Shown: positions 1-2,827 of the stretch, one piece after another
Layout: every line of letters begins with the position of its first letter
How positions within the stretch are numbered: the first letter of the stretch is position 1
Sequence record: FN394996.1
From: Enterobacteria phage CUS-3
Length of the DNA: 2,827 bases
Strand: one strand, 5' to 3'
The notes under the pieces: model-generated
What the model saw: only the letters and a program-made list of their open reading frames with translations
Database searches by the model: none
What the model was told of the DNA's origin: nothing
Program-made: the position numbers and the translations under genes

Positions 1-438
1 ATGGCGCGCCCAACAAAGTATCAAGAGGCGTATGCCGAACAGGCACGCAAACTGTGCTTGCTGGGCTACACCGATGCAGAGCTTGCTGATTTCTTCGAAG
101 TCAGTGAGTCAACTATTAACAAGTGGAAGCTTGATTATCCTGAGTTTTCGGAGTCCATAAAAAAGGGTAAGGCCGTCGCTGATGCAGAAGTTAGTGATCG
201 TCTTTATCAACGCGCTATGGGCTTCGTGGCTCCAGATATCGATATTCGTGTTATTGAAAACAGAATTGTCGAAACTCCGCTTGAGAAGTATTACCCGCCT
301 GATACAACCGCTGCCATTTTCTGGCTTAAGAACCGACAGAAGGATAAATGGCGCGACAAGGTTGATCACGAGCTAACAGGCAAAGACGGCGGCGCAATTC
401 AGATTGAAACATCACCGATGAGCACTCTATTCGGAAAA
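1..438 (+). CDS. Phage terminase small subunit (TerS), Sf6/P22-like packaging module; 146 codons visible from the ATG at 1, stop codon hidden in the masked block
   Basis: Frame 1 ORF starting at ATG 1. Translation MARPTKYQEAYAEQARKLCLLGYTDAELADFFEVSESTINKWK... contains an N-terminal helix-turn-helix-like segment (GYTDAELADFFEVSESTINKWK), an AIFWLKNRQKDKWRDK stretch typical of small terminase subunits, and a C-terminal tail GKDGGAIQIETSPMSTLFGK that I recall as shared with the Sf6-type small terminase. The ORF track extends it to 543 only because masked N codons translate as X; the in-frame TGA at 541-543 is not evidence of the true stop. Confidence 0.75.
64..129 (+). other. Predicted helix-turn-helix DNA-binding motif within TerS (residues about 22-43)
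   Basis: Sequence GYTDAELADFFEVSESTINKWK has the short helix / turn (S-E-S) / recognition helix pattern of HTH motifs; small terminases bind pac DNA through an N-terminal HTH. Pattern-based only. Confidence 0.45.
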
Positions 439-538: not shown

Positions 539-1762
539 TCTGAGCCATGTGTAAAATATTATGATGGCATTCTGTATCTGACGACCAGGGGGACATTAAG
601 TACTCAACCCGGTAGTTCATTGCACAGAAGCTCTGATTTAGGTACATCATGGAATTCTCTTCGCTTCCCAAATAATGTTCATCACTCAAACCTTCCTTTT
701 GCCAAAGTTGGCGATGAGCTGATTATTTTTGGCAGTGAGCGCGCATTTGGTGAGTGGGAAGGAGGAGAACCTGATAACCGTTATGCAGGAAATTATCCAA
801 GAACATTTATGACCAGAGTTAACGTCAATGAGTGGAGTCTGGATAATGTAGAGTGGGTTAATGTTACTGATCAGATTTATCAGGGCGGAATAGTTAACTC
901 TGCGGTTGGTGTTGGTTCAGTTTGTATCAAAGACAACTGGCTGTACTACATTTTCGGTGGGGAAGACTTTCTAAACCCATGGAGCATAGGGGATAACAAC
1001 AGAAAATATCCTTATGTTCACGATGGTCACNNNNNNNNNNNNNNNNNNNNNNNNNNNNNNNNNNNNNNNNNNNNNNNNNNNNNNNNNNNNNNNNNNNNNN
1101 NNNNNNNNNNNNNNNNNNNNNNNNNNNNNNNNNNNNNNNNNNNNNNNNNNNNNNNNNNNNNNNNNNNNNNNNNNNNNNNNNNNNNNNNNNNNNNNNNNNN
1201 NNNNNNNNNNNNNNNNNNNNNNNNNNNNNNNNNNNNNNNNNNNNNNNNNNNNNNNNNNNNNNNNNNNNNNNNNNNNNNNNNNNNNNNNNNNNNNNNNNNN
1301 NNNNNNNNNNNNNNNNNNNNNAGCGGCGGTGAAACAACGTCTTCAGCAGATGGCGCAATGATAACGTTGCATGGTTCCGGAAGCAGTACTCCACGTCGCG
1401 CGGTATATAACGCACTCGAACATCTTTTTGAGAACGGAGATGTTAAACCTTATCTTGATAATGTAAATGCTCTTGGTGGTCCGGGAAACAGGTTCTCGAC
1501 AGTTTATCTTGGCTCCAATCCTGTGGTTACCAGTGACGGAACATTAAAGACAGAGGCGGTCTCTCCTGACGAAGCATTGCTGGATGCCTGGGGTGACGTC
1601 AGGTATATCGCTTATAAATGGCTGAACGCTGTCGCTATAAAGGGGGAAGAAGGGGCGAGGATACATCATGGTGTAATCGCGCAGCAACTTCGTGATGTTC
1701 TTATTTCTCACGGACTCATGGAAGAAGAAAGCACAACATGCCGCTATGCCTTTCTTTGCTAT
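539..1762 (+). CDS. Tailspike / tail fibre protein, endosialidase-like (sialidase beta-propeller segment plus C-terminal intramolecular chaperone domain); partial, with start and stop both in masked sequence
   Basis: Frame 2 has no stop from 422 to 1762 across visible sequence. Visible segment 539-1030 translates to ...YYDGILYLTTRGTLSTQPGSSLHRSSDLGTSWNSLRFPNN...GGEPDNRYAGNYPRTFMTRVNVNEWSLDNVEWVNVTDQIYQGGIVNSAVGVGSVCIKDNWLYYIFGGEDFLNPWSIGDNNRKYPYVHDGH, with an Asp-box. Visible segment 1322-1762 translates to ...NRFSTVYLGSNPVVTSDGTLKTEAVSPDEALLDAWGDVRYIAYKWLNAVAIKGEEGARIHHGVIAQQLRDVLISHGLMEEE..., matching the S-D-x-x-L-K autocleavage and HHG-IAQ motifs of the peptidase S74-type chaperone domain found at the C-terminus of endosialidases and other tail fibres. 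The 291-nt masked block keeps the frame (97 codons). This ORF is absent from the supplied ORF track, apparently because it has no in-window stop. Confidence 0.7.
629..652 (+). other. Asp-box (bacterial neuraminidase repeat) motif SSDLGTSW
   Basis: Codons 629-652 in frame 2 encode S-S-D-L-G-T-S-W, fitting the S-x-D-x-G-x-x-W Asp-box consensus of sialidase-type beta-propellers. Confidence 0.6.
1031..1321. other. Masked or undetermined sequence (291 N) inside the tailspike-like ORF
   Basis: 291 N, which is 97 codons; frame 2 is the coding frame on both sides. Confidence 1.
1532..1762 (+). other. C-terminal intramolecular chaperone (peptidase S74-like) domain, N-terminal part, with predicted autoproteolytic Ser-Asp site at codons 1532-1534 / 1535-1537
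   Basis: TSDGTLKTE (Ser 1532-1534, Asp 1535-1537) followed by DVRYIAYKWLNAV and RIHHGVIAQQL (1658-1690) matches the conserved order of motifs in tail-fibre chaperone domains. About 76 residues of the domain are visible; the rest and the stop codon are masked. Confidence 0.6.
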
Positions 1763-2179
1763 NNNNNNNNNNNNNNNNNNNNNNNNNNNNNNNNNNNNNN
1801 NNNNNNNNNNNNNNNNNNNNNNNNNNNNNNNNNNNNNNNNNNNNNNNNNNNNNNNNNNNNNNNNNNNNNNNNNNNNNNNNNNNNNNNNNNNNNNNNNNNN
1901 NNNNNNNNNNNNNNNNNNNNNNNNNNNNNNNNNNNNNNNNNNNNNNNNNNNNNNNNNNNNNNNNNNNNNNNNNNNNNNNNNNNNNNNNNNNNNNNNNNNN
2001 NNNNNNNNNNNNNNNNNNNNNNNNNNNNNNNNNNNNNNNNNNNNNNNNNNNNNNNNNNNNNNNNNNNNNNNNNNNNNNNNNNNNNNNNNNNNNNNNNNNN
2101 NNNNNNNNNNNNNNNNNNNNNNNNNNNNNNNNNNNNNNNNNNNNNNNNNNNNNNNNNNNNNNNNNNNNNNNNNNNNNNN
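1763..2179. other. Masked or undetermined sequence (417 N) spanning the tailspike 3' end, the intergenic region and the 5' region of the acetyltransferase gene
   Basis: 417 N, which is 139 codons. Hides the tailspike stop, any promoter or ribosome-binding site, and the place where the neuO heptanucleotide repeat tract would be expected. Confidence 1.
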
Positions 2180-2827
2180 ATGTCGTTTTCCGTTGATGAT
2201 AATGGATCAGGTAATATTTTTGTATGTGGAGATCTTGTAAATAGCAAAGAGAATAAAGTTCAGTTCAATGGAAACAATAACAAACTTATTATAGAAGATG
2301 ATGTTGAGTGTCGATGGCTTACCGTAATATTTAGGGGTGATAATAATTACGTAAGAATACATAAAAACAGTAAGATTAAAGGTGATATTGTCGCAACAAA
2401 AGGTTCAAAAGTTATTATCGGTAGAAGAACGACAATAGGTGCAGGTTTTGAAGTCGTCACTGATAAGTGCAATGTTACAATTGGCCATGACTGCATGATA
2501 GCAAGAGATGTTATTTTGCGTGCATCAGATGGGCATCCTATATTTGATATTCATAGCAAAAAAAGGATTAATTGGGCAAAAGATATCATTATATCTAGTT
2601 ACGTATGGGTAGGGAGAAATGTCTCTATAATGAAAGGGGTATCTGTTGGAAGCGGATCTGTCATTGGGTATGGGAGTATTGTAACTAAAGATGTGCCATC
2701 TATGTGTGCAGCAGCCGGTAATCCAGCAAAAATAATAAAAAGAAATATAATATGGGCAAGAACGGATAAAGCGGAGCTAATTAGTGATGACAAGAGATGC
2801 TCCAGCTATCATGCGAAGCTCACGCAA
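2180..2827 (+). CDS. neuO: Hexapeptide-repeat (left-handed beta-helix) acetyltransferase, NeuO-like polysialic acid O-acetyltransferase; 3' partial (no stop before window end); true start may lie upstream in masked sequence
   Basis: Frame 2 ORF from ATG 2180 to the window end, 216 codons with no stop. Translation MSFSVDDNGSGNIFVCGDLVNSKENKVQFNGNNNKLIIEDD...IGAGFEVVTDKCNVTIGHDCMIARDVILRASDGHPIFD...SSYVWVGRNVSIMKGVSVGSGSVIGYGSIVTKDVPSMCAAAGNPAKIIKRNIIW shows imperfect hexapeptide repeats and the C-terminal GNPAK segment typical of this acyltransferase family. Counting from Met 2180, His falls at residue 119 (codon 2534-2536) and Trp at 143 (codon 2606-2608), which matches my recollection of the residues reported as catalytically critical in NeuO. 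The gene is strongly AT-rich and lies directly downstream of an endosialidase-like tailspike, as neuO does in CUS-3. Confidence 0.65.
   Translation, partial: MSFSVDDNGSGNIFVCGDLVNSKENKVQFNGNNNKLIIEDDVECRWLTVIFRGDNNYVRIHKNSKIKGDIVATKGSKVIIGRRTTIGAGFEVVTDKCNVTIGHDCMIARDVILRASDGHPIFDIHSKKRINWAKDIIISSYVWVGRNVSIMKGVSVGSGSVIGYGSIVTKDVPSMCAAAGNPAKIIKRNIIWARTDKAELISDDKRCSSYHAKLTQ

Follow-up and report, generated by a model that had tools for sequence, protein, structure and literature searches.

The DNA analysed here, a stretch of 2827 nt deposited as record FN394996.1 from Enterobacteria phage CUS-3 and referred to below as the window, raises the question of what is encoded between its positions 539 and 1762. 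The original prediction, made by reading motifs in the translated letters, was that this region specifies an endosialidase-like tailspike, of the type that degrades the K1 capsule, with an Asp-box and a self-cleaving C-terminal chaperone domain. The motifs on which the prediction was based lie exactly where it had placed them (SSDLGTSW and HHGVIAQQL, Table 1; Ser-Asp, 1532–1537), and all of them fall in one open frame, frame 2 of the + strand. The data presented in the following paragraphs argue that positions 539–1030 and 1322–1762 are, almost certainly, two PCR-sequenced fragments of siaK1, the gene for the endosialidase tailspike of CUS-3, a temperate, P22-like Lederbergvirus integrated in E. 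coli K1. The assignment to the endosialidase family was thus correct, although the architecture is seen only partly, in two fragments and not in a whole gene.

The first fragment comprises 164 stop-free codons. In a profile search it matched the Pfam family End_beta_propel, which is described as the 'catalytic beta propeller domain of bacteriophage endosialidase', with 350 bits (E 1.6e-104) over profile positions 192–355 of 367. It was also aligned end to end with two solved endosialidases, that of phage phi92 (gp143, 4hiz; E 1.8e-83, the best PDB match for this fragment) and that of phage K1F (endoNF, 1v0e/3gvk; E 3.3e-80), its first residue corresponding to endoNF residue 580. The Glu and the two Arg residues of the active site that are listed in Table 1 are invariant in the alignment of the CUS-3, K1F and K1E endosialidases, as well as among nine CUS-3 genotypes. 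A deep mutational scan of the K1F spike places Glu581, Arg596 and Arg647 among its key catalytic, mutation-intolerant residues (PMC12632334). The catalytic His350 and Arg549 (K1F numbering) fall upstream of the siaK1 sequence in the window. The Ser, Asp, Gly and Trp of the Asp-box, which fits the consensus S-x-D-x-G-x-T/S-W, are likewise invariant among CUS-3, K1F and K1E. This Asp-box is the second of the propeller; the first, SGDDGKTW, is present in the full-length homologue from E. coli strain E1, upstream of the part visible here.

The second fragment is made up of 147 codons with no stop, and the frame of the first fragment is kept across the run of 291 N that separates the two. Its residues 1–70 matched Pfam End_tail_spike (114 bits, E 7e-33, profile positions 91–160 of 160), and this stalk piece could be aligned with the last 69 residues of the mature endoNF chain. 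Residues 71–132 matched Pfam Peptidase_S74 (E 1.2e-11; 45 bits, the cut-off being 22), and the first 77 of about 164 residues of the chaperone domain are visible. The E values obtained with the two fragments are far outside anything that chance would give. The Thr-Ser cleavage site, the partner Lys and the HxGVxAQ motif are invariant in the alignment of CUS-3, K1F and K1E and in the nine CUS-3 genotypes.

It was of interest to locate the bond at which the chaperone domain would be released. The original prediction had pointed to the Ser-Asp pair. The Ser is indeed the key residue, but the bond is that between Thr and Ser (1531|1532), not that between Ser and Asp, so that Ser would become the first residue of the released domain. 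Three observations on endoNF place the scissile bond between Thr 1529–1531 and Ser 1532–1534. The crystal chains of the mature protein (1v0e/3gvk) stop at ...NPIVT, which is aligned with ...NPVVT in the window; the chaperone-domain construct 3gw6, which the second fragment matched with an E value of 5.4e-61, has Ala where the window has Ser; and in the K1F genome record the mature peptide gp17* ends at residue 910 and gp17-CTD begins at residue 911. The Ser-Lys dyad of endosialidase chaperone domains has been described as active only in the folded trimer, with a role as a folding sensor (PMC3742443). By homology to endoNF, the chaperone domain of siaK1 would be expected to release itself after trimerization.

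Table 1. Features of the window, with positions numbered from its first base
Feature	Position	Strand	Remarks
CUS-3 small terminase subunit gene	1–438	+	Complete but for the stop codon; 100% identical to E. coli E1 locus L001 3791–4228
siaK1 fragment 1, second half of the six-bladed beta-propeller catalytic domain	539–1030	+	Residues 487–650 of 981
Active-site Glu	542–544	+	endoNF (K1F) Glu581, from 1v0e/3gvk alignment
Active-site Arg	587–589	+	endoNF Arg596, from 1v0e/3gvk alignment
Active-site Arg	740–742	+	endoNF Arg647, from 1v0e/3gvk alignment
Asp-box SSDLGTSW, second of the propeller	629–652	+	From translation; K1F counterpart SRDIGQTW
Run of 291 N	1031–1321	+	siaK1 codons 651–747 (end of propeller and first part of stalk); flanks map to L001 20492 and 20784
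siaK1 fragment 2a, C-terminal end of the triple-beta-helix/stalk domain	1322–1531	+	Ends at Thr, the mature C-terminus
siaK1 fragment 2b, first 77 residues of the C-terminal intramolecular chaperone/Peptidase S74 domain	1532–1762	+	
Nucleophile Ser	1532–1534	+	Predicted from alignment to K1F, K1E and CUS-3
Partner Lys	1547–1549	+	Five residues beyond Ser (S-D-G-T-L-K)
HHGVIAQQL	1664–1690	+	From translation
Run of 417 N	1763–2179	+	Last 87 siaK1 codons and stop (to about 2026), siaK1–neuO intergenic region and neuO upstream region
neuO, polysialic acid O-acetyltransferase, CUS-3 cargo gene	2180–2827	+	Without AAGACTC repeat tract and without stop codon

A chaperone domain of this type is not, of course, diagnostic of endosialidases. 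The Peptidase_S74 part of the second fragment, taken alone, also matches spikes that are not endosialidases (9vvr and 6eu4), a phi29-type neck appendage (3gud) and a tail fibre (7y5s), and several PHROG tail-fibre families are matched too, all of which would fit a tail fibre or spike directed at some other glycan that shares with the endosialidases only this domain and a generic BNR/Asp-box propeller. The remainder of the sequence speaks against such a protein. The propeller fragment scores 350 bits with an endosialidase-specific profile and aligns along its whole length with solved endosialidases, the stalk matches End_tail_spike, the residues of the polysialic acid active site are kept, and the sequence is 99–100% identical to siaK1 of CUS-3. 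In PHROGs, both fragments were assigned to tail-spike families. All three profiles sought in the two fragments were thus found, the motifs and active-site residues are shared with the endosialidases of K1F, K1E and CUS-3, and the best matches are endosialidases, with no tail fibre of another glycan specificity among them. The profile and structure matches, together with the near-identity to siaK1, rule out a fibre of other specificity, for which the chance that is left is vanishingly small.

Four readable pieces are separated by runs of N at 439–538 (100 N), 1031–1321 and 1763–2179, and they represent, in order, the small terminase gene, the two siaK1 pieces and neuO without its repeat tract. 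Taken at face value, a terminase gene is followed in the window, after 100 nt, by tailspike codon 487, as would be found in a decayed prophage in which the small terminase had become fused, over some 100 bp, with what remained of a truncated tailspike gene, its 3′ half, leaving a non-functional relic of an endosialidase. A megablast search of phage records provided the means to evaluate that reading. It is apparent that the window belongs to a GenBank series (FN394218 and FN394986–FN395002), in which, from the numbering, it would be genotype GT_12. The search found 17 records of this series, each of them 2827 nt in length like the window, and those retrieved have titles of the form 'Enterobacteria phage CUS-3 partial proviral terminase gene, siaK1 gene and neuO gene, genotype GT_n'. 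All of the eight sister records that were retrieved have the features 1–438, 539–1030, 1322–1762 and 2180–2827 and the same layout of N runs. In these records the piece corresponding to 539–1030 is annotated as 'siaK1 endosialidase' and that corresponding to 1–438 as the small terminase. The window, in all four of its pieces, matches the CUS-3 typing records, with identities of 98.2–99.7% to those retrieved.

The 100-N run is a spacer that takes the place of about 15.8 kb of CUS-3 late genes, and the window is a hand-concatenated typing record, with no contiguous locus behind it. The window begins with the ATG of the terminase gene, and the terminase and neuO pieces each end exactly at the last sense codon. 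The end of the terminase piece at that codon and the clean excision of the neuO repeat tract are both signs of assembly by hand. The other two N runs keep the true length of the siaK1 and intergenic DNA that was left unsequenced, less the repeats of neuO; by a length-true projection, the 417-N run corresponds to L001 21225–21718 in E. coli E1, i.e. to 494 nt, which is 417 nt plus 11 copies of the 7 nt repeat. The adjoining neuO and terminase pieces, which had gone unnoticed in the original prediction, identify the element as CUS-3. Rfam had no match to either strand along the full length of the window, and the minus-strand ORFs beneath 539–1762 are only short or span the N runs, giving no support for a gene there.

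Complete genomes provide additional data on the same point. The first three pieces of the window show 100% identity with the E. coli E1 chromosome. In that genome the small terminase gene (L001 3791–4231) and the tailspike gene (L001 18543–21488; 981 aa, annotated as 'phage tailspike protein', stop codon at 21486–21488) lie 15.8 kb apart, and the first siaK1 fragment corresponds to 20001–20492 within the latter. The E1 prophage is intact and P22-like, with portal, P22 gp5-type capsid, gp4/gp10 and ejection proteins. With at least eight sister records that share the N layout and whose parts are termed 'partial' genes, and with the two loci well separated in an intact prophage that is identical over these pieces, a fusion of terminase and tailspike in a truncated prophage was rejected, and a decayed remnant is considered highly improbable. 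The two siaK1 pieces are better regarded as fragments of the CUS-3 tailspike gene, a reading with which none of the results conflicts.

Matches of this kind are common. Positions 539–2827 are covered by the best 25 E. coli chromosome matches, all with identities of 99.8–99.9%, and some part of the window was matched in 698 of 5426 genomes. The large number of chromosomes that match the siaK1 and neuO stretch fits the published frequencies of neuO/CUS-3, which was found in 43.5% of K1 genomes and in 88% of those of ST95 (PMC13001214). It had been predicted from the motifs that the host would be encapsulated with polysialic acid, and the identity of the sequence with siaK1 of CUS-3, a prophage of K1-encapsulated E. 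coli, bears this out.

The full-length E1 protein served to place the two fragments. Its Pfam domains are Head_binding (1–113), End_N_terminal (146–212), End_beta_propel (213–662; 772 bits) with an End_beta_barrel inserted at 324–406, End_tail_spike (663–817) and Peptidase_S74 (from 818). Residues 487–650 and 748–894 are visible in the window, while the N-terminal 486 residues, which include the P22-type head-binding domain and the propeller's first half, fall outside its visible part, as do the 87 residues at the C-terminus; a frameshift or stop codon may thus sit elsewhere in this isolate's gene, of which 311 of 981 codons are read.

The identity of the sequence, the domains in it and the fact that its catalytic and cleavage residues are conserved were observed directly. 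The activity of CUS-3 siaK1, its trimerization and the mechanism of its autoproteolysis are known from the literature or from database annotation, and the allele in the window is presumably active as well. On this basis, the full protein of 981 residues would begin with a P22-type head-binding domain and an N-terminal extension, go on with a six-bladed propeller into which a beta-barrel is inserted and a triple-beta-helix stalk, and end in the C-terminal chaperone. The N-terminal P22-type module is that which docks the spike on the virion, and the modularity of the CUS-3 tailspike has been described (PMC5380687). The spike would assemble as a trimer, with the chaperone domain driving the folding of the stalk; once the trimer had formed, the Ser/Lys dyad would cut the Thr|Ser bond and the chaperone domain would be released. 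The mature spike would then bind the K1 capsule's alpha-2,8-polysialic acid and cleave it endolytically, at a propeller active site formed by the Glu and two Arg residues of the first fragment along with the His and Arg encoded upstream. Cleavage of the capsule would allow the virion to reach the cell surface.

Comparison with known phage endosialidases, the endo-N-acetylneuraminidases of family GH58, indicates how closely the tailspike resembles each of them. The siaK1 gene of the CUS-3 genome (CP000711; protein ABQ88383) is the same gene as that represented in the window, with neuO as its neighbour and the phage backbone shared. The visible fragments, taken together with neuO, are 99.4% identical to it at the nucleotide level, and the full-length E1 protein is 98.7% identical to its product; the order siaK1 then neuO, the acetyltransferase gene, is found both in the E1 prophage and in CP000711. 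The window differs from this gene by a few allelic substitutions in the stalk/chaperone fragment (G/R, T/I, A/P and A/T). The CP000711 gene carries the annotation 'endo-alpha-sialidase activity, evidence IDA, PMID 16689790', the reference being to Stummeyer et al. 2006. The feature is already known, and is annotated in public records under the name that the original prediction had proposed.

EndoNF (K1F gp17; 1v0e, 3gvk and 3gw6) has the same catalytic propeller, stalk and chaperone domain as siaK1, and is about 63% identical to the E1 protein over residues 114–980, with higher values in the visible fragments. Its residues E581, R596 and R647, its T910|S911 cleavage site and K916 are all identical in the window. 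The two proteins differ at the N-terminus, where K1F gp17 has a T7-type particle-binding domain and the CUS-3 spike a P22-type head-binding domain, and the phages differ in lifestyle, K1F being lytic and CUS-3 temperate. EndoNE (K1E gp47, found also in K1-5) has the propeller active site, the Asp-box and the cleavage Ser and Lys as in siaK1, with about 43% identity in the alignment. Its chaperone domain is shorter and diverged, and in place of an N-terminal capsid-binding module it attaches via the adaptor gp37. The stalk of phi92 gp143 is far more diverged from that of siaK1 than is its propeller (E 1.6e-7 for the second fragment), and phi92 is a myovirus with multiple spikes. The Ser-x4-Lys dyad, trimer-dependent self-cleavage and the role of folding sensor are common to the Peptidase S74/ICA domains of other phage fibres and of eukaryotic MYRF. 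Those proteins have unrelated upstream domains, whereas the siaK1 domain stands in its original endosialidase context.

These results add little that is new. They re-identify a textbook case of modular tailspike evolution, in which a prophage has an endosialidase catalytic module, with its self-cleaving chaperone, grafted to a head-binding domain of the P22 type. Motif reading alone sufficed for the correct call. The record also serves as a warning that runs of N may hide the joining of distant loci.

The nine available genotypes were compared in terms of their polymorphism. In the siaK1 stalk/chaperone fragment there were seven nonsynonymous and one synonymous variable sites, as against five and 29, respectively, in the terminase gene (Fisher p = 2e-4), the variation in the latter being mostly one imported patch. 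This contrast probably reflects recent or relaxed polymorphism in siaK1 on the one hand and old, recombined variation in the terminase gene on the other. Diversifying selection acting, in resident prophages, on the C-terminus of the tailspike, for instance through co-evolution with O-acetylated forms of the capsule, would be another explanation, but a distinctly unlikely one. In genotype GT_7 (FN394991), the 5′ third of the small terminase gene, at window positions 69–150, holds a dense cluster of mostly synonymous differences, the signature of a patch acquired by recombination from a diverged P22-like phage.

The excess of nonsynonymous sites in 1322–1762 is also what might be seen if relaxed constraint in a resident prophage had impaired the siaK1 allele catalytically or proteolytically, so that it specified a spike that binds only or a precursor that remains uncleaved, and a Pro to Ala substitution private to the window, three residues past the catalytic Lys, could be cited in favour of that view. 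On the other hand, seven nonsynonymous sites among eight do not exceed what neutrality predicts (p = 0.37), the known catalytic and cleavage residues are all invariant, the Pro/Ala position is variable in the active K1E enzyme, and the same allele is found in intact prophages of complete genomes. An impaired allele is accordingly regarded as very unlikely, and a presumably active siaK1 endosialidase remains the preferred reading. Among the nine typing records, the window alone has 1354 C, which is silent, and 1556 G, which is the Pro to Ala change. The chromosome of E. coli E1 has both of these alleles as well, and K1E does not conserve the position at 1556.

The neuO piece specifies the enzyme that O-acetylates the same polymer as the spike cleaves. 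NeuO is a phase-variable capsule O-acetyltransferase, tied to virulence and phage exclusion in E. coli K1, especially in ST95. The product of positions 2180–2827 is about 99% identical to the NeuO of PDB 3jqy (E 1.6e-142), has a match to the Pfam Hexapep family and retains His119 and Trp143. O-acetylation has been reported to lower killing by K1 phage, and this has been read as superinfection exclusion. The gene starts in the window as ATGTC|GTTTTCC (2180–2195), with zero copies of the AAGACTC phase-variation repeat, and the same is true of eight of the eight sister records. Copy numbers in complete genomes are at least five (11 in E. coli E1 and 19 in CUS-3 of strain RS218), and from 2 to 93 copies are given in the literature. 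A natural, repeat-less neuO allele locked in the on state was considered and rejected; zero repeats in eight sister records, set against at least five copies in complete genomes, point to a convention of the deposit. The base directly 5′ of the repeat insertion site, at 2184, is C or T (Ser2 or Leu2), the start being ATGTT in GT_1 to GT_4 and ATGTC in the window.

The small terminase piece, which in the phage genome lies some 15.8 kb upstream of the siaK1 fragment, had no match in Pfam, and matched PHROG 309 (terminase small subunit) with 233 bits. Its similarity to the solved small terminase Sf6 gp1 is confined to the last 38 residues (E 5e-11), and this restricted likeness suggests that its N-terminal DNA-binding part is of a different type.
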